A stretch of DNA of 64,000 bases, taken from sequence record PZ445524.1; one strand, written 5' to 3'. Source of the stretch: a phage. Numbering within the stretch: the stretch's first letter is position 1; every line of letters starts with the position of its first letter. The translations under genes and the position numbers were made by a program. This document shows positions 33-61,497 of the stretch, in pieces. The notes below the pieces were generated by a model that saw only the letters and a program-made list of their open reading frames with translations, was not told where the DNA came from and ran no database searches.

Positions 33-2012
33 ATGACTTTATTATCTCCGGGCATTGAGCTCAAAGAAACTACGGTTCAAAGCACCGTGGTTAATAACTC
101 TACTGGTACAGCAGCTTTGGCCGGTAAATTCCAGTGGGGTCCTGCTTTTCAGATTAAACAGGTTACAAACGAAGTAGATTTAGTTAATACTTTTGGTCAA
201 CCAACCGCTGAAACTGCTGACTATTTTATGTCTGCGATGAATTTCTTGCAGTACGGAAATGACTTACGAGTAGTTCGTGCTGTTGATAGAGATACCGCTA
301 AAAACTCATCTCCGATTGCCGGTAATATTGAATACACAATTTCTACCCCAGGCAGTAACTACGCAGTTGGAGATAAAATCACGGTCAAATATGTTTCAGA
401 TGCTATTGAAACTGAAGGTAAAATTACTGAAGTAGACACAGATGGAAAAATTAAGAAAATTAATATTCCTACCGCAAAAATTATCGCTAAAGCGAAAGAA
501 GTAGGCGAATATCCAGCATTAGGTTCTAACTGGACTGCGGAAATTTCTTCGTCTTCCTCTGGTTTAGCTGCAGTAATAACTCTTGGAAAAATTATTACTG
601 ATTCTGGTATTTTATTAGCTGAAATTGAAAATGCTGAAGCTGCTATGACAGCGGTTGACTTTCAAGCAAATCTCAAAAAATATGGAATTCCAGGAGTAGT
701 AGCTCTTTATCCAGGTGAGTTAGGCGATAAAATTGAAATTGAAATCGTATCTAAAGCTGACTATGCAAAAGGAGCTTCTGCATTACTCCCAATTTATCCA
801 GGTGGTGGTACTCGTGCATCTACTGCCAAAGCAGTGTTTGGATATGGACCGCAAACTGATTCACAGTACGCTATTATAGTTCGTCGTAATGATTCTATTG
901 TTCAAAGCGTTGTTCTTTCAACTAAGCGTGGTGAAAAAGATATTTACGATAGTAACATCTATATCGATGACTTTTTCGCAAAAGGTGGTTCAGAATATAT
1001 TTTTGCAACTGCACAAAACTGGCCAGAAGGCTTCTCTGGAATTTTAACTCTGTCTGGTGGATTATCATCAAATGCTGAAGTAACAGCAGGAGATTTGATG
1101 GAAGCTTGGGACTTCTTTGCTGACCGTGAATCAGTTGATGTTCAACTGTTTATTGCGGGTTCTTGTGCCGGTGAATCTTTAGAAACAGCATCTACTGTCC
1201 AAAAACACGTCGTTTCAATTGGGGATGCTCGCCAAGATTGCTTAGTATTGTGCTCACCACCGCGTGAAACTGTAGTTGGAATTCCTGTAACCCGTGCTGT
1301 TGATAACTTAGTCAATTGGAGAACCGCAGCAGGTTCATACACTGATAATAACTTTAATATCAGTTCAACCTACGCAGCAATTGATGGTAACTATAAGTAT
1401 CAGTATGACAAATATAATGATGTGAATCGTTGGGTTCCATTAGCAGCTGATATTGCGGGTTTATGTGCAAGAACTGATAACGTATCTCAGACTTGGATGT
1501 CTCCAGCTGGTTATAATCGTGGTCAGATTCTTAACGTTATTAAACTTGCTATTGAAACTCGCCAGGCTCAGCGCGACCGTTTATACCAAGAAGCTATCAA
1601 CCCGGTAACCGGTACAGGTGGTGATGGTTACGTATTGTATGGTGATAAAACAGCTACTTCTGTTCCTTCTCCATTTGATCGTATTAACGTTCGTCGTCTG
1701 TTTAATATGTTGAAAACGAATATCGGACGTAGTTCAAAATATCGTTTGTTCGAATTAAACAACGCGTTTACTCGTTCATCATTCCGCACAGAAACTGCCC
1801 AGTACTTACAGGGAATTAAAGCTCTCGGTGGAATTTATGAATATCGTGTAGTTTGCGATACAACAAATAACACTCCGTCAGTAATTGATAGAAATGAGTT
1901 TGTTGCAACATTCTACATCCAACCGGCGCGCAGTATAAATTATATTACTTTGAATTTCGTCGCAACTGCTACTGGTGCAGATTTCGATGAGTTAACTGGT
2001 CTTGCAGGTTAA
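33..2012 (+). CDS. 18: tail sheath protein gp18
   Basis: 659 aa; N-terminus MTLLSPGIELKETTVQSTVVNNSTG matches remembered T4 gp18; followed by gp19 in T4 order. Confidence 0.95.
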   Translation: MTLLSPGIELKETTVQSTVVNNSTGTAALAGKFQWGPAFQIKQVTNEVDLVNTFGQPTAETADYFMSAMNFLQYGNDLRVVRAVDRDTAKNSSPIAGNIEYTISTPGSNYAVGDKITVKYVSDAIETEGKITEVDTDGKIKKINIPTAKIIAKAKEVGEYPALGSNWTAEISSSSSGLAAVITLGKIITDSGILLAEIENAEAAMTAVDFQANLKKYGIPGVVALYPGELGDKIEIEIVSKADYAKGASALLPIYPGGGTRASTAKAVFGYGPQTDSQYAIIVRRNDSIVQSVVLSTKRGEKDIYDSNIYIDDFFAKGGSEYIFATAQNWPEGFSGILTLSGGLSSNAEVTAGDLMEAWDFFADRESVDVQLFIAGSCAGESLETASTVQKHVVSIGDARQDCLVLCSPPRETVVGIPVTRAVDNLVNWRTAAGSYTDNNFNISSTYAAIDGNYKYQYDKYNDVNRWVPLAADIAGLCARTDNVSQTWMSPAGYNRGQILNVIKLAIETRQAQRDRLYQEAINPVTGTGGDGYVLYGDKTATSVPSPFDRINVRRLFNMLKTNIGRSSKYRLFELNNAFTRSSFRTETAQYLQGIKALGGIYEYRVVCDTTNNTPSVIDRNEFVATFYIQPARSINYITLNFVATATGADFDELTGLAG

Positions 2013-2106
2013 TACGGTGCATTCTAAAGGCCTGTTTCGGCAGGCCATATAAATACACTATATCCTTAATTCTTTAATTCTATATGCCCTAGGTTAAACA
2101 TAGGGA

Positions 2107-2114
2107 TATAAATA
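2107..2114 (+). promoter_or_regulatory. T4-type late promoter TATAAATA upstream of gene 19 (second copy at 2048..2055)
   Basis: exact TATAAATA about 15 nt before gene 19 start. Confidence 0.7.
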
Positions 2115-2128
2115 CTACAGAGGCTAAT

Positions 2129-2620
2129 ATGTTTGTAGATGATGTAACACGAGCGTTTGAATCTGGTGATTTTGCTCGACCTAACTTATTCCAAGTAGAA
2201 ATTTCTTATCTTGGACAAAATTTTACGTTCCAATGTAAAGCTACTGCTCTACCAGCTGGTATTGTAGAAAAAATTCCAGTCGGATTTATGAACCGTAAAA
2301 TTAACGTAGCAGGCGATCGTACATTCGATGACTGGACTGTTACAGTAATGAACGATGAAGCTCATGATGCTCGCCAGAAGTTTGTTGATTGGCAAAGCAT
2401 TGCTGCGGGGCAAGGAAACGAAATTACTGGTGGAAAACCTGCAGAGTATAAAAAGAGCGCTATCGTTCGTCAATATGCTCGTGACGCTAAAACAGTAACA
2501 AAAGAAATTGAAATTAAAGGTCTGTGGCCTACTAACGTGGGTGAACTTCAATTAGATTGGGATTCAAACAATGAAATCCAAACATTTGAAGTAACTCTTG
2601 CTCTCGATTATTGGGAATAA
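2129..2620 (+). CDS. 19: tail tube protein gp19
   Basis: 163 aa, same length and position as T4 gp19. Confidence 0.95.
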   Translation: MFVDDVTRAFESGDFARPNLFQVEISYLGQNFTFQCKATALPAGIVEKIPVGFMNRKINVAGDRTFDDWTVTVMNDEAHDARQKFVDWQSIAAGQGNEITGGKPAEYKKSAIVRQYARDAKTVTKEIEIKGLWPTNVGELQLDWDSNNEIQTFEVTLALDYWE

Positions 2621-2626
2621 AATGAA

Positions 2627-2642
2627 TGGGGAGAAATCCCCA
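2627..2642 (+). terminator. hairpin TGGGGA-GAAA-TCCCCA after gene 19
   Basis: inverted repeat immediately after stop; weak T-tract. Confidence 0.4.
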
Positions 2643-2652
2643 TCCTGCTTAA

Positions 2653-4277
<1,625 letters not shown>

Positions 4278-4278
<1 letters not shown>

Positions 4279-4523
4279 TGGAAGGTTTAATTGAAGCTAT
4301 TAAATCAAACGACCTCGTAGCCGCTCGTAAATTATTTGCTGAAGCCATGGCTGCAAGAACGATTGATTTAATTAAAGAAGAAAAAATCGCTATCGCTCGT
4401 AATTTCTTAATCGAAGGTGAAGAACCTGAAGACGAGGATGAAGATGAAGATGATGACGAAGATAGCGATGATAAAGACGACAAAAAAGACAAAGACTCTG
4501 ACGAAGACGAGGATGATGAATAA
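4278..4523 (+). CDS. 67: prohead core protein gp67 with acidic C-terminal tail
   Basis: 81 aa, [20 protein letters not shown] then poly-D/E tail; start overlaps gp20 stop (TAATG). Confidence 0.9.
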
Positions 4524-4948
4524 TGCTTCTGATCCCTGAAACTCATGAATTAGTTCTCGAGAATGTCGAAGCACTTATTCCTGAAGCACAGGGTCGCTTT
4601 GACGAATTGTCTTCTGCTTTAAATAAAGACGATATAAATACAATTGTCGAGAATATGCTTGATGATGAAACTGATTTAGCGGTTGCATTAGCTTCTATTA
4701 ATGAAAATATGCCGTTAAATGAATTCATAGTTAAACATGTTTCTGCCCGTGGTGAAATTACTCGCACTAAAGATCGCAAAACCCGCGAACGAAATGCATT
4801 TCAAACCACTGGGCTGTCTAAAGCAAAACGTAGACAAATTGCTCGTAAAGCTACCAAAACGAAGATTGCCAATCCAGCAGGTCAATCTCGTGCTCAGCGT
4901 AAGCGTAAAAAAGCTCTTAAACGCCGTAAAGCATTAGGATTAAGCTAA
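4523..4948 (+). CDS. 68: prohead core protein gp68
   Basis: 141 aa, basic C-terminus; T4 order 67-68-21. Confidence 0.9.
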
Positions 4949-8010: not shown

Positions 8011-8025
8011 TCTTTGACGATTTAA

Positions 8026-8054
8026 GGGACCTTCGGGTCCCTTTAGTTGTTTTT
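8026..8054 (+). terminator. intrinsic terminator after gene 23 (GGGACC-TTCG-GGTCCC plus T-tract)
   Basis: perfect 6-bp GC stem with UUCG tetraloop followed by TTTAGTTGTTTTT. Confidence 0.85.
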
Positions 8055-10960: not shown

Positions 10961-10985
10961 AATGAAGAAAGGGGCCGAAGCCCCT
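10961..10985 (-). terminator. intrinsic terminator after hoc
   Basis: GGGGC-TTCG-GCCCC hairpin followed by T-rich run on minus strand. Confidence 0.75.
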
Positions 10986-10990
10986 TATGA

Positions 10991-13149: not shown

Positions 13150-14661
13150 ATGACTGACATTAAAGTACATTTTTATGATTTTAGTCACGTGAGAATTGAT
13201 TGTGAAGAAAGTACATTTCATGAACTCCGTGATTTCTTTAGCTTTGAAGCTGATGGGTATCGTTTTAATCCGAAATACAGATATGGCAACTGGGATGGAC
13301 GAATCCGTCTTTTAGATTATAATCGTCTTCTTCCATTCGGCTTAGTCGGGCAAATTAAAAAGTTCTGTGATAACTTTGGCTATAAAGCCTGGATTGACCC
13401 ACAAATTAACGAAAAAGAAGAATTATCAAGAAAAGATTTTGATGAATGGCTTTCTAAATTAGAAATCTATTCAGGAAATAAAAGAATTGAACCACACTGG
13501 TATCAAAAAGATGCAGTGTTCGAAGGATTAGTTAATCGTCGTAGAATTCTTAATCTTCCAACATCCGCTGGTAAATCGTTAATTCAAGCTTTGCTTGCGC
13601 GATATTATTTGGAAAATTATGAAGGTAAAATTCTTATCATTGTTCCAACAACTGCTTTAACAACTCAGATGGCTGATGACTTCGTTGACTATCGTTTATT
13701 CAGTCATGCAATGATAAAGAAAATTGGCGGCGGAGCATCAAAAGATGATAAATATAAAAATGATGCACCAGTCGTTGTTGGTACATGGCAAACTGTAGTT
13801 AAACAACCAAAAGAATGGTTCTCACAGTTTGGAATGATGATGAATGATGAATGTCATCTTGCTACAGGAAAAAGTATTTCATCCATCATATCAGGTTTAA
13901 ATAACTGCATGTTCAAATTCGGTTTGTCTGGTTCATTACGTGATGGCAAAGCCAATATCATGCAGTATGTTGGAATGTTTGGTGAAATATTTAAGCCAGT
14001 AACGACTTCTAAGTTAATGGAAGATGGACAAGTAACTGAGCTAAAAATTAATAGTATTTTTCTTCGCTATCCCGATGAGTTCACTACTAAATTAAAGGGA
14101 AAAACTTACCAAGAAGAAATAAAAATTATTACTGGGCTCAGTAAAAGAAATAAATGGATCGCTAAATTAGCTATTAAGCTTGCGCAAAAAGATGAAAACG
14201 CTTTTGTCATGTTTAAACATGTATCGCATGGTAAAGCTATTTTCGATTTAATTAAAAATGAATACGATAAAGTTTATTACGTATCAGGGGAAGTTGATAC
14301 CGAAACCCGCAACGTAATGAAAACCTTAGCTGAAAATGGTAAAGGAATAATTATAGTAGCGAGTTATGGTGTATTTTCTACTGGTATTTCAGTTAAAAAT
14401 CTGCATCATGTTGTTTTAGCGCACGGCGTTAAATCAAAAATCATTGTATTACAAACAATCGGTCGTGTATTACGTAAGCATGGTTCTAAAACAGTCGCAA
14501 CAGTCTGGGACCTCATAGATGATTGTGGTGTTAAGCCAAAATCTGCTAATACGAAAAAGAAATATGTTCATTTGAACTATCTTTTAAAACACGGCATTGA
14601 TCGTATTCAGCGCTACGCAGATGAAAAATTTAATTACGTAATGAAAACAGTTAATTTATAA
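13150..14661 (+). CDS. uvsW: UvsW RNA-DNA and DNA-DNA helicase (SF2)
   Basis: 503 aa; Walker A LPTSAGKS and DECH box; T4 UvsW length. Confidence 0.93.
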   Translation: MTDIKVHFYDFSHVRIDCEESTFHELRDFFSFEADGYRFNPKYRYGNWDGRIRLLDYNRLLPFGLVGQIKKFCDNFGYKAWIDPQINEKEELSRKDFDEWLSKLEIYSGNKRIEPHWYQKDAVFEGLVNRRRILNLPTSAGKSLIQALLARYYLENYEGKILIIVPTTALTTQMADDFVDYRLFSHAMIKKIGGGASKDDKYKNDAPVVVGTWQTVVKQPKEWFSQFGMMMNDECHLATGKSISSIISGLNNCMFKFGLSGSLRDGKANIMQYVGMFGEIFKPVTTSKLMEDGQVTELKINSIFLRYPDEFTTKLKGKTYQEEIKIITGLSKRNKWIAKLAIKLAQKDENAFVMFKHVSHGKAIFDLIKNEYDKVYYVSGEVDTETRNVMKTLAENGKGIIIVASYGVFSTGISVKNLHHVVLAHGVKSKIIVLQTIGRVLRKHGSKTVATVWDLIDDCGVKPKSANTKKKYVHLNYLLKHGIDRIQRYADEKFNYVMKTVNL

Positions 14662-14676
14662 GGGCTTCGGCCCTTT
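14662..14676 (+). terminator. hairpin GGGC-TTCG-GCCC after uvsW
   Basis: short GC stem with UUCG loop and TTT; weak. Confidence 0.4.
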
Positions 14677-22230: not shown

Positions 22231-23195
22231 TGTATTCTTTAGAGGAATTTAATAATCAAGCAATAAACGCAGATTTCCAACGTAATAATATGTTTAGCTG
22301 CGTTTTTGCAACAACTCCATCAACTAAAAGCTCTTCGTTGATAAGTTCAATTAGCAACTTTTCTTATAATAACTTGGGCCTAAATTCAAATTGGTTAGGA
22401 TTAACTCAAGGTGATATTAATCAGGGAATTACCACGCTAATTACAGCTGGCACACAAAAACTGATAAGAAAATCAGGGGTTAGTAAATATCTTATTGGTG
22501 CCATGAGTCAACGTACAGTTCAAAGTTTATTAGGCTCATTTACAGTTGGTACATATTTAATTGACTTCTTTAACATGGCATATAATTCATCTGGATTGAT
22601 GATATACTCTGTAAAAATGCCAGAGAATAGATTATCCTATGAAACTGACTGGAACTATAATTCTCCTAATATTCGTATAACTGGGAGAGAATTAGACCCT
22701 TTGGTTATTTCATTTAGAATGGATTCAGAAGCTTGTAACTATCGTGCAATGCAAGACTGGGTTAACTCTGTTCAAGACCCAGTAACTGGACTGCGTGCTT
22801 TGCCGCAAGATGTCGAGGCAGATATTCAGGTTAATCTTCATTCTCGCAATGGATTGCCTCATACTGCGGTGATGTTCACCGGATGCATTCCAATATCAGT
22901 GAGCGCTCCTGAGTTATCATATGATGGAGATAACCAAATAACTACATTTGATGTTACTTTTGCGTATAGAGTGATGCAGGCTGGAGCAGTTGATAGGCAA
23001 GCTGCGCTTGAATGGCTTGAATCTGCTGCTATAAATGGTATTCAAAGCTCTTCTGGAAATAGTGGAGGTGTTACTGGACTATCTAATTCGCTTTCACGAC
23101 TTAGTAGATTAGGAGGGACTGCAGGAAGCATTTCAAACATTAATACTATGACAGGAATTGTCAATTCGCAAAGTAAAATATTAGGAGCAATATAA
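22230..23195 (+). CDS. 54: baseplate tail tube initiator gp54
   Basis: 321 aa, T4 gp54 length and order. Confidence 0.9.
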   Translation: MYSLEEFNNQAINADFQRNNMFSCVFATTPSTKSSSLISSISNFSYNNLGLNSNWLGLTQGDINQGITTLITAGTQKLIRKSGVSKYLIGAMSQRTVQSLLGSFTVGTYLIDFFNMAYNSSGLMIYSVKMPENRLSYETDWNYNSPNIRITGRELDPLVISFRMDSEACNYRAMQDWVNSVQDPVTGLRALPQDVEADIQVNLHSRNGLPHTAVMFTGCIPISVSAPELSYDGDNQITTFDVTFAYRVMQAGAVDRQAALEWLESAAINGIQSSSGNSGGVTGLSNSLSRLSRLGGTAGSISNINTMTGIVNSQSKILGAI

Positions 23196-23198
23196 CAA

Positions 23199-23230
23199 TG
23201 GGGACCGAAAGGTCCCCATATTTTTATTTA
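23199..23230. terminator. bidirectional terminator between gene 54 and the convergent minus-strand ORF
   Basis: GGGGACC-GAAA-GGTCCCC hairpin flanked by T-runs. Confidence 0.8.
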
Positions 23231-23514
23231 CGGAATGAAATGAAAGCAGCAACTGAAGCAACTAAACTGTCTTCAATATAAACTTCAATTTTTACAGGAG
23301 CTTCTGACTCAAATTTACCTGTTACTACACCCTGAAAAATACTTTCAGTCTGTTCTGGCTTTGAAAAATTTTCAGAAGGAAAAATTCCGAACTTTTTATC
23401 TGTTCCAAAAATTTTAATAAATTCATCGTAAACTGCTTCATTAAAAGCATTATCAGCAGGAATAACGCCTTCAACTACAAGTTCTTGACCTAAAAAGCGC
23501 AAAGAAGATTTCAT
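23224..23514 (-). CDS. hypothetical early protein (T4 alt.-2 or alt.-3 position)
   Basis: 96 aa ORF with GAGGA RBS, directly downstream of an early promoter. Confidence 0.7.
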   Translation of the reverse strand: MKSSLRFLGQELVVEGVIPADNAFNEAVYDEFIKIFGTDKKFGIFPSENFSKPEQTESIFQGVVTGKFESEAPVKIEVYIEDSLVASVAAFISFRK

Positions 23515-23521
23515 TTTGTGT

Positions 23522-23575
23522 TCCTCATGTTATGTCAGTAAGACTACTATAACACAACACGAGGGACTTGTAAAC
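23522..23575 (-). repeat. 54-bp exact direct repeat, copy A (copy B at 36428..36481)
   Basis: identical 54 nt at both loci spanning -35, -10 and 5' leader. Confidence 0.9.
23546..23575 (-). promoter_or_regulatory. T4-type early promoter (copy A of the 54-bp repeat)
   Basis: minus strand GTTTAC, 18-nt spacer, TGtTATAGT, then GAGGA and ATG. Confidence 0.7.
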
Positions 23576-23931
23576 TACATTTTGAACTTTTTAGTACGCG
23601 GAATAGGCATGCGTCGATTTTATACTGTTTCATTGTTTGAAGAGCAGTATCAAAACAGCATTAATGACACCAATTGGATTTCCACCCAAGTTTCTAAGCT
23701 TAACCAGTGATAATTTCTCATTAACACCTATCATTACGATATGCATCATTTTATCGCCCGGCTTAACGTTTTATTCGTATCACCGCCAGAGGTGTATGTA
23801 CAAAATCTAAATCCAGGAAGCACACTTTCTTCACCGGCTTGAATAGCAAAAATTTGAGGTATTTTATGCTTAGGATTTAAGTTAACAACCGGCGCCGAAG
23901 CGCCGTCAAATAATTCTGTAATAAGTTCCAT
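23576..23931 (-). pseudogene. decayed duplicate of the alt 5' end; intact first 61 codons at 23746..23931
   Basis: 61-aa ORF MELITELFDGASAPVVNLNPKHKIPQIF... parallels Alt residues 2-60; downstream DNA still translates to GDKMMHIV...YKIDACM-like stretches with frame breaks. Confidence 0.75.
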
Positions 23932-23934
23932 GAT

Positions 23935-25986
23935 TTATCCTTGAACGAACTTGTAAGGCATGTTTGCAATATCTATGCAAGACGCAATAATTCCAAGAGA
24001 TGATTCTACTTTCTGTTTAACATTTGACGAAACAAATGATGCAAAGTCAACTCTGTCTTCTATATCACCTGTCATTGTAACCAATTCACCAGTTTCCATT
24101 AAATGGTCTCCGTCATAGATTACCGATTCGGTGAGTTCTTCTGTGGTCATAACTTCAGCTTGAATAAGCTTGTTGTTAGTTCTAACTGTTCCATCATTGT
24201 AAGATGCATCGGTTATTTTATTAACTTTGACCATTAATCCACGTGGCAAAATGACTTCCATTTCATTTGAAGGCGCTAAACTTCCACCGGGTAAAACAAC
24301 ATTGACTTTATCAGCCCCAGTAATAACCCATCCAATTCCAACTAAATTATCGCTAGAATTTACAAGTCCTTCATCAGTTTTATCAATAGAAACGCTTAAA
24401 CGCTTTTCGTCTGGTAAAACACCCACAGATGAATCAGTCATCCAAGTACCAAAAATATTTGGATATAATGATGTTGACACAAAGTTTCTAAAATAAAAAA
24501 CTCGATTTTTTACCATTGCTTCATATATTGAAGGTAACATTCGTTGTGAACGATACAAAGTAATACCTTTTGGTAATCGTTCACCATTTTTAAAGGCTGA
24601 ATCTAAATTATCAATGGCTTGTTCTATTTCAGGTGCTGTTAAAATACTTGTACGCTCATCTGGATTATATAATCCCAAAAGAGCATTATTCATGTCTACA
24701 TATCCTGAACCTACATATTCACGAATTCCGCGTTTTTGCGCTGGTGTGTATTTAGATGAATCTTTATTTTCGACTATAGGATGTAATGACCATCCAGCGG
24801 TAAGAGCATATCCACGTAATTCTCTTCGAATAATCTTTGTTTTTATTGCATTCCAAGAATTTTGTACTAACTCATTTGCAGCATCTTGGTTTAAATGCGA
24901 ATGTTTGTTAATATTTCTTTCAAACCAAGCACCTTTATATTTTTCTAAGGTATCATCGACGATAGAAGCAATAGTTTCTAAAGTTTTTATTGAAGTAATA
25001 GATTCTTTTTTTAATTTTTCTAAAGCTTTATTTTTTATTTCTGCATTAATAATGGATTCTTTATCTTCAGGAATTATAGAAGCTTCTCTGAATGCCATCC
25101 CAGCTGTAACACTACTAAGAGCATTCTCTAATGCAAATCCTGAAGTAGAAATAACAGTTAATTCATTAGCATCAGAAATTAAAGGAGCGTCAGCAGGTTT
25201 ATTTAATTCTGCTGCTGAAGCCTCAAATTTTTGAAACATCGGCGTTTCAAATCTAGAAGATTCCAACGACTGACTTTGTGCAATTGCTCTACGGGAAATT
25301 TTAACTTTAACGATTACAGCTTGGTCAGAACGTTTATCATTTTCTTGTGCAATAGATGCTGCAATTGCCTCATTTTTAGTTACTTGAGCTCCAGTATCTT
25401 TATTGATATAAACATCACCGACCTTCGATTCAACTTTAGTAAAGAGCTCGGTACTAATTTCCGGAACTCCTGGAATGTCTTCTAGTGATACATTTTTGCG
25501 ATGTATAAGAATATATGCATACTTTTTATCATAATCCCAGAGTTCCTTAAGAAGGACGTATCTGCCACCTGAACGACTACGGATAAGTCTATCAGCAATA
25601 ACTTGAATTTGTCGAGCTTGACCAGCAGTTTTAGACTTAAGAATACGAAGCATGCAGGCATCAATTTTATACTGACGCATTGTTTGCATTGCAACAGTAA
25701 AAACCGAATTGATATAATTAATTGGGCTTGGACCAAGACCTTTCAATTTAGCAATTGAACCTTTAGCAGTTAATGTAAAAGGAACAATATGCATCATTTT
25801 ATCGCCCATTTTTAAATCGCGATTAGTATCACCTCCAGATGTATAGGTACATAAACGAAAGCCTGGTTGTTCAATTGCATCATCAACATGAACTGAAAAA
25901 ATTTGCGGTATTTTCTTCTTTGGATGTAAGTTTGTAATTGGAAGAGTAGTATCTTCGTCAAATAATTCTGTAATAAGTTCCATCAT
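23935..25986 (-). CDS. alt: Alt ADP-ribosyltransferase (packaged, modifies host RNA polymerase)
   Basis: 683 aa ORF (682 aa from second Met); T4 Alt length and position; late promoter at 26008. Confidence 0.9.
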   Translation of the reverse strand: MMELITELFDEDTTLPITNLHPKKKIPQIFSVHVDDAIEQPGFRLCTYTSGGDTNRDLKMGDKMMHIVPFTLTAKGSIAKLKGLGPSPINYINSVFTVAMQTMRQYKIDACMLRILKSKTAGQARQIQVIADRLIRSRSGGRYVLLKELWDYDKKYAYILIHRKNVSLEDIPGVPEISTELFTKVESKVGDVYINKDTGAQVTKNEAIAASIAQENDKRSDQAVIVKVKISRRAIAQSQSLESSRFETPMFQKFEASAAELNKPADAPLISDANELTVISTSGFALENALSSVTAGMAFREASIIPEDKESIINAEIKNKALEKLKKESITSIKTLETIASIVDDTLEKYKGAWFERNINKHSHLNQDAANELVQNSWNAIKTKIIRRELRGYALTAGWSLHPIVENKDSSKYTPAQKRGIREYVGSGYVDMNNALLGLYNPDERTSILTAPEIEQAIDNLDSAFKNGERLPKGITLYRSQRMLPSIYEAMVKNRVFYFRNFVSTSLYPNIFGTWMTDSSVGVLPDEKRLSVSIDKTDEGLVNSSDNLVGIGWVITGADKVNVVLPGGSLAPSNEMEVILPRGLMVKVNKITDASYNDGTVRTNNKLIQAEVMTTEELTESVIYDGDHLMETGELVTMTGDIEDRVDFASFVSSNVKQKVESSLGIIASCIDIANMPYKFVQG

Positions 25987-26007
25987 ATCCTCTCTAGTGT
26001 TTATTCT

Positions 26008-26015
26008 ATTTATAA
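26008..26015 (-). promoter_or_regulatory. late promoter TATAAATA upstream of alt
   Basis: minus strand TATAAATA about 22 nt upstream of alt ATG. Confidence 0.7.
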
Positions 26016-26020
26016 AATTA

Positions 26021-26038
26021 AAGGCCCGAAGGCCTTTA
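26021..26038. terminator. hairpin AAAGGCC-CGAA-GGCCTTT between the 62-aa ORF and alt
   Basis: perfect 7-bp inverted repeat. Confidence 0.6.
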
Positions 26039-26224
26039 ATAATCTATTGGTAAGAGAGTACGATATATTTCAAACTTTGGACCTTTTTCATAAGCATCAA
26101 AAGTTTCTGTGAATTTATTATAAGCATATGCATCTATAAATTCAATCATGATTTGTGATACAGAAGTAGAAACATCTCCACCTTCTTTTTGAGCCACGAC
26201 AATTGTTTCTAAGTAAGCTTTCAT
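26036..26224 (-). CDS. hypothetical protein
   Basis: 62 aa ORF between gene 30 and alt; overlaps ligase stop. Confidence 0.55.
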   Translation of the reverse strand: MKAYLETIVVAQKEGGDVSTSVSQIMIEFIDAYAYNKFTETFDAYEKGPKFEIYRTLLPIDY

Positions 26225-29921: not shown

Positions 29922-29962
29922 AATATTTTCCTCAATAGGGGGCCGAAGCCCCTCATTTTATT

Positions 29963-30802: not shown

Positions 30803-30833
30803 GGAAAATAAAAAAGGACTCCCGAAGGAGTCC
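30803..30833 (-). terminator. intrinsic terminator after the basic small protein gene
   Basis: GGACTCC-TTCG-GGAGTCC perfect 7-bp stem followed by TTTTTTATTTT. Confidence 0.85.
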
Positions 30834-30838
30834 TCAAC

Positions 30839-61467: not shown

Positions 61468-61469
61468 AA

Positions 61470-61497
61470 GAGGGCTTCGGCCCTCTAAGGATTTTTA
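61470..61497 (+). terminator. hairpin GAGGGC-TTCG-GCCCTC after gene 37
   Basis: perfect 6-bp GC stem with UUCG loop; modest T-run; gene 38 ATG follows. Confidence 0.55.

Follow-up and report, generated by a model that had tools for sequence, protein, structure and literature searches.

The Alt-like sequence that lies between alt and alt.-3 is very probably a pseudogene: a tandem second gene for an Alt ADP-ribosyltransferase, here reduced to a stump. We have named its full-length form alt2. It was found in a stretch of phage DNA of 64,000 nucleotides (sequence record PZ445524.1), which is referred to here as the window. The feature is a known pseudogene, as T4 RefSeq already calls the T4 genes alt.-1 and alt.-2 a duplication of alt, and Nolan et al. 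(2006; PMC1524935) describe them as paralogous duplications of that gene. What is added here is the direction of the change and its apparent mechanism, a microhomology deletion of a full-length gene, together with allele frequencies and a selection test.

The locus and the Alt-like remnant

The window belongs to a close relative of T4. Positions 23200..24000 matched T4 records at 97.5-98% nucleotide identity, and 503 Tequatrovirus records matched this interval in total. The minus-strand genes run from DNA ligase (gene 30) through alt.1, alt and the Alt-like remnant to alt.-3, with genes 54 and 48 on the plus strand beyond alt.-3 (Table 1). The position of the remnant matches that of T4 alt.-1 and alt.-2, between alt and alt.-3 on the same strand and starting 4 nt past the alt stop (3 nt separate the alt TAA from the ATG of alt.-1/alt2). 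An AAGGA sits 8 nt 5' of the ATG of the 61-aa ORF, and the same start context precedes intact alt2 in T2, T6 and RB51.

Table 1. Features at the alt to alt.-3 locus (positions in the window)
Feature	Position	Strand	Remarks
alt, intact, 683-aa ORF	23935..25986	-	orthologue of T4 alt; paralogue of the remnant
AAGGATAAATCATG, Shine-Dalgarno-like AAGGA and ATG of alt.-1/alt2	23929..23942	-	overlaps alt stop TAA
alt.-1 ORF, 61 aa	23746..23931	-	alt2 codons 1-54 and 7 out-of-frame codons past the A-run frameshift
C(UUCG)G tetraloop hairpin, CGGCGC-TTCG-GCGCCG	23890..23905	-	26 nt into the ORF, 30 nt past alt stop
Run of four A (five in intact alt2)	23769..23772	-	-1 frameshift, makes the alt.-1 stop
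39-aa ORF, first part of T4 alt.-2	23630..23749	-	alt2 codons ~62-92, shifted frame
Run of four T (five elsewhere)	23652..23655	-	second -1 frameshift, splits alt.-2
28-aa ORF, remainder of alt.-2 (MKQYKIDACLFRVLKS)	23547..23633	-	reads through beyond the deletion junction
Deletion junction, sole copy of the 9-bp direct repeat CTAAAAAGT	23586..23594	-	by alignment to intact alt2
Final 11 nt of alt2 (TCAAAATGTAG)	23575..23585	-	by alignment; includes the original TAG stop
Early-promoter-like TTTACA-17-TATAGT, TG before the -10	23546..23574	-	best in scan, 10/12; upstream of alt.-3
alt.-3, 96 aa, DUF5498	23224..23514	-	Pfam PF17602, E 1.4e-64; downstream bound of the locus
ORFs antisense to alt2-derived sequence	23516..23710 and 23637..23810	+	without supporting evidence

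The first ORF of the remnant, annotated in T4 as alt.-1, reads MELITELFDGASAPVVNLNPKHKIPQIF...FCTYTSGGDTNKTLSRAIK. As the first-pass annotation had proposed, it parallels the N-terminus of the adjacent Alt, with 35 of 57 residues identical (61%; BLASTP, E = 3e-23) and the first nine, MELITELFD, the same in both. The Alt-like stretches that had been noticed downstream of it (GDKMMHIV, QYKIDAC) also proved real, with frame breaks at the A and T runs. When the nucleotides of 23540..23940 were aligned with the 5' end of alt, 69% of the 348 columns were identical. The aligned part reaches from the ribosome-binding site as far as the YKIDAC codons, and its best 210 nt gave E = 8e-28 (blastn). Alt-family sequence stops at 23575, one base from the limit of 23576 given originally. 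BLASTP identified homology to the Alt N-terminus, and the remnant holds no ART catalytic domain.

Alt of the window carries an ADPrib_exo_Tox domain (PF03496) at residues 375-615 (Pfam, E 1.2e-33). This T4-type Alt shares 69.9% protein identity with T2 Alt (2473..4566 of the T2 locus) and is 14 residues shorter, despite flanking DNA that is ~96-98% identical. On this comparison, alt is itself hypervariable among closely related T-even phages.

Origin of the remnant from a full-length alt2

In T2, T6 and RB51 the slot of the remnant holds an intact second Alt-like gene, alt2 (2,058 nt, 685 aa), which begins 4 nt past the alt stop and is followed by alt.-3. The whole 23200..24000 query was covered by no more than 91 of the 503 records that matched; in about 400 the match ended at window position 23586, and two Alt-like genes are annotated there. 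At least 80% of T2 alt2 is present in 402 records of the phage collection, and a 70-nt stretch spanning the deletion junction was found in 90. Aligned end to end, Alt and Alt2 are 40.9% identical; a 2026 paper describes two Alt-like paralogues of ~43% identity in SHFML-11 and 6phi13 (PMC13600099).

Compared with nt 1-348 of intact alt2, the remnant shows 96-97% identity, and residues 1-54 of the 61-aa ORF are identical to those of T2 Alt2. The 69% identity to alt therefore reflects an old divergence of functional paralogues and is no product of decay following truncation.

Alignment of the window with T2 gave two blocks, one covering the end of alt and nt 1-348 of alt2 (96.6% identity) and the other the final 20 nt of alt2 with all the sequence beyond it (96.4% identity). 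The blocks overlap by 9 nt, CTAAAAAGT, a sequence that occurs twice in intact alt2, at codons 114-116 and again 11 nt before the stop, with 1,699 bp from copy to copy; the window therefore carries a 1,699-bp deletion between direct repeats. On these alignments, the deletion has evidently removed everything past codon 116, including the ART domain (PF03496, residues 416-620 of Alt2). Of the gene, codons 1-116 are left, fused out of frame to its final 11 nt. The ancestral order was alt, alt2 (2,058 nt) and alt.-3, which most Tequatroviruses still hold.

From anchor to anchor, the locus spans 2,118 nt when intact. Sixteen deleted alleles were measured; 14 of them gave 418-419 nt and the remaining two 417 and 425 nt. 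All 18 deletion alleles sampled, the window included, have the identical junction, which points to a single origin.

These results bear on two descriptions of the region in the first-pass annotation. That it is a relic of a tandem alt duplication is borne out by the intact 685-aa paralogue in the same slot in T2, T6, RB51 and about 400 other records. That it is a truncated, decaying duplicate of the alt 5' end is correct as to truncation, which the 1,699-bp deletion accounts for, and mistaken as to a copy of the 5' end only, since the whole gene was once present and its last 11 nt are kept.

In the lineage of T4 and the window, one event of illegitimate recombination or replication slippage between the two CTAAAAAGT repeats thus caused the loss of 1,699 bp. 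A -1 slip in the run of five A then produced the 61-aa alt.-1 ORF, and in the window a further -1 slip in the run of five T split alt.-2 into the 39-aa and 28-aa ORFs.

Other structural alleles were also seen at this locus. Yersinia phage PST (KF208315) has a single, chimeric alt gene (960..3020 of its locus), which matches T2 alt at 98-100% identity up to about nt 300 and from there on matches T2 alt2 at 92-100% in 100-nt windows. This looks like the product of an unequal crossover between the tandem paralogues, which would make it a third structural allele. FJ1 (MZ170040.1) has 19% of alt2 covered, in two pieces, and sutha (PV245934.1) has the final 128 nt only, suggesting further, independent rearrangements of alt2 besides the T4-type deletion.

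Lesions and selection after the deletion

To follow the remnant across phages, 29 alleles were aligned, 18 bearing the deletion (window included) and 11 intact. Twenty-four alleles were taken from the phage collection; IMG/VR, used with an Alt.-3 anchor, gave five loci, which is not enough to survey a population.

Phage SYGD1 has the deletion without any secondary lesion and retains a 128-aa ORF, which is 62% identical to Alt residues 2-118 (BLASTP, E = 7e-49). Neither the 61-aa ORF nor the unbroken 128-aa remnant gave a Pfam match. Besides the window, 13 of the 17 deletion alleles sampled have the A-run slip, T4 included, and it is absent from fPS-2, EC128, 215Ecol030PP and SYGD1. Of all alleles sampled, the window and CE1 alone have the T-run slip. 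Single-base homopolymer differences of this kind may in part be sequencing errors in individual records. An ORF of the same 39-aa length as that of the window is annotated in CE1. Nine of the 18 deletion alleles have a stop at codon 6 (GAA to TAA, E6 stop), HY03 has a 7-nt duplication, and F25 has lost one A from the A run at the junction. The codon-6 stop and the A-run slip occur in all four combinations among the deletion alleles, which indicates recombination or recurrent mutation.

At least five different secondary lesions were thus present across the deleted alleles, and the substitutions gave the pattern of a pseudogene under relaxed constraint. Over codons 1-116, the 11 intact alleles showed 39 synonymous variants and 1 nonsynonymous variant, whereas variants private to the 18 deleted alleles numbered 2 synonymous and 12 nonsynonymous or nonsense (Fisher's exact test p = 3e-9), 'private' variants being ones that might also occur in unsampled intact alleles. 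This is the signature expected if alt2 is strongly constrained while whole and unconstrained once truncated. In the window itself, true decay comes down to the 1,699-bp deletion, a 1-nt slip at each of two sites and a small number of substitutions.

Expression of the stump and possible residual use

The motif TATAAATA at 26007..26014 was read from the sequence as a late-promoter motif of alt, by the established T4 late-promoter consensus. A bidirectional terminator is located at 23198..23219. The terminator scan found no terminator-like site between alt and alt.-3, and the stump is therefore expected to be transcribed together with alt. In T4, RNA of alt.-1 and alt.-2 has been detected and classed as 'middle', and in the infection time-course proteome of the same study Alt.-1 and Alt.-2 were not detected ('NA'), which is weak evidence as shotgun proteomics easily misses small peptides such as Alt.-1, an example tryptic peptide of which is IPQIFAIQAGEESVLPGFR (PMC9697503, Table S2).

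We consider it unlikely that the stump is partly still in use, whether as an alt-coupled 61-aa prohead peptide or through a hairpin that defines or stabilises the 3' end of alt mRNA. For the second of these, which by itself we hold to be very unlikely, the stump would be kept for a role of its RNA: the C(UUCG)G hairpin near the start of the 61-aa ORF would act as a 3' stabiliser or partial terminator of alt mRNA, and the rest of the stump would be a spacer ahead of the control region of alt.-3. This hairpin has a six-pair, all-GC stem and a UUCG loop (-12.8 kcal/mol), is of the same class as the terminator hairpin at 26017..26040 just upstream of alt, and is unchanged in 29 of 29 aligned alleles; if its putative function were real, a working cis element would have survived the T4-type deletion. 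However, it lies inside the intact alt2 coding sequence in about 400 phages, so that it is older than the deletion and leaves the remnant unexplained. No T run lies 3' of it, the terminator scan did not flag it, and the conservation of its six invariant codons is not significantly above that of the rest of the stretch. Over its full 420 nt, the sequence is predicted to fold only a little more stably than shuffled versions of it (z = -2.05), which is not convincing for a structured RNA, and an Rfam scan of 23100..26100 gave nothing meaningful (one chance match to IRES_APC, E = 0.48).

Hairpins with TTCG loops are over-represented in the window, with 12 observed against 2.2 expected from shuffles. 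Other GC-rich C(UUCG)G hairpins are at 26017..26040, 29939..29952, 30815..30834 and 10969..10986 on the minus strand and at 8024..8043, 14660..14675 and 61469..61486 on the plus strand. The hairpin in the stump and the terminator at 26017..26040 bracket alt.

Less probable still is a functional Alt.-1 peptide, the co-packaged product that the first-pass annotation had suggested, which would depend on coupling to alt for its translation and on the shared Alt N-terminus for its entry into the prohead core, and which the gp21 protease would trim before it was co-packaged or injected; a packaging signal in the Alt N-terminus is assumed as its premise. The 61-aa ORF is unbroken in the window, with its Shine-Dalgarno-like AAGGA, its start close behind the alt stop and its MELITELFD in common with Alt; the intact ORF and the retention of AAGGA and MELITE also count against the pseudogene reading, as translation is possible. 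MELITE, the same in the 61-aa ORF as in Alt, fits I-x-E, a form of the gp21 processing motif (L/I)-x-E. In gpAlt, gp21 is known to cut off a small N-terminal peptide (review, PMC9958956). Against a functional peptide, the codon-6 stop falls on the last residue of MELITE in half of the deletion alleles, and of the private variants that deleted alleles have over codons 1-55, 9 change or truncate the protein (nonsynonymous or nonsense) and 1 is synonymous. The C-terminus of the 61-aa ORF is a frameshift read-out, its length varies by allele (128 aa in SYGD1), and Alt.-1 went undetected in T4 proteomics, as given above. The suggestion of a co-packaged peptide is thus unsupported.

That the 5' end of alt alone was duplicated in place and then diverged to 69% has next to no probability. 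In its favour, the T4 RefSeq record, in the part of its note available, says of alt.-1 and alt.-2 that together they look like a 'duplication of the first part of gene alt' that has acquired a stop codon, and the T6 record labels the full-length gene an 'apparent insertion in alt.-2'. Against it, the remnant matches an intact 2,058-nt gene at its 5' end and keeps the last 11 nt and stop of that gene, the junction has deletion-type microhomology, and full-length alt2 is the majority state, with its own ART domain and with strong purifying selection acting on it (39 synonymous variants to 1 nonsynonymous). This candidate is ruled out by the alignment in two blocks and by the alt2 3' end that is still present.

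As a pseudogene, the stump would still be transcribed, as the tail of alt-containing RNA, and the 61-aa ORF could be translated through coupling to alt. Any Alt.-1 product would then have no role and would not be maintained by selection.

The promoter-like site at the far end of the stump (Table 1) is native to the spacer between alt2 and alt.-3 and lies outside the pseudogene. A strong hairpin at 23523..23564 on the minus strand (-22 kcal/mol, z = -6.2) pairs the Shine-Dalgarno GAGG of alt.-3 (23523..23526) with a CCUC upstream of the -10, and an RNA begun at this promoter would have no 5' arm and folds at 0 kcal/mol. From the folding, read-through RNA from alt would be predicted to occlude the ribosome-binding site of alt.-3. 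The arrangement looks like the T4 habit of promoter-dependent translation, and by analogy may here favour early expression of alt.-3. In T4, alt.-3 is early by both RNA and protein (PMC9697503, Table S2). C-terminal extension mutations of alt.-3 let T4 escape the CmdTAC defence system (PMC11618068); alt.-3 of the window has the normal 96-aa form.

Comparison with known Alt-family genes

The remnant result itself matters little beyond confirming and sharpening the existing T4 annotation. In fPS-2 the region is already annotated as 'similar to N-terminal of ... Alt, putative pseudogene'. It follows from our reading that alt.-1 and alt.-2 are better treated as one pseudogene, the alt2 stump, than as two hypothetical proteins, and that the T6 note of an insertion has the direction reversed, the deletion being T4's. 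T4 is without a second head-type Alt-like enzyme that ~80% of the genus keeps under strong purifying selection. No function of Alt2 is recorded in the annotations and literature examined, and for research on phage ADP-ribosylation Alt2 is a more interesting object than the remnant.

The parent gene alt2 is represented by T2 AYD82791.1 (noted 'alt.-1'), T6 AXN58232.1, RB51 YP_002854151.1, SHFML-11 and others. Unlike intact alt2, with its 685 aa and PF03496 domain, the window keeps only nt 1-348 and the last 11 nt. T4 gpAlt is the head-packaged, injected ADP-ribosyltransferase of RNA polymerase, and the remnant is its paralogue: the first 116 residues are 62% identical to T4 Alt and MELITELFD is the same in both, but unlike T4 Alt the remnant has no catalytic domain and shows no sign of a protein product. 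The closest counterparts are T4 alt.-1 (T4p199, NP_049810, UniProt P39495) and alt.-2 (T4p198, NP_049809, P39494), with which the remnant shares the locus, 97.5-98% nucleotide identity, the deletion junction and the A-run frameshift. Unlike T4, the window has lost one further nucleotide from the T run, so that the 67-aa alt.-2 of T4 is represented by the 39-aa and 28-aa ORFs.
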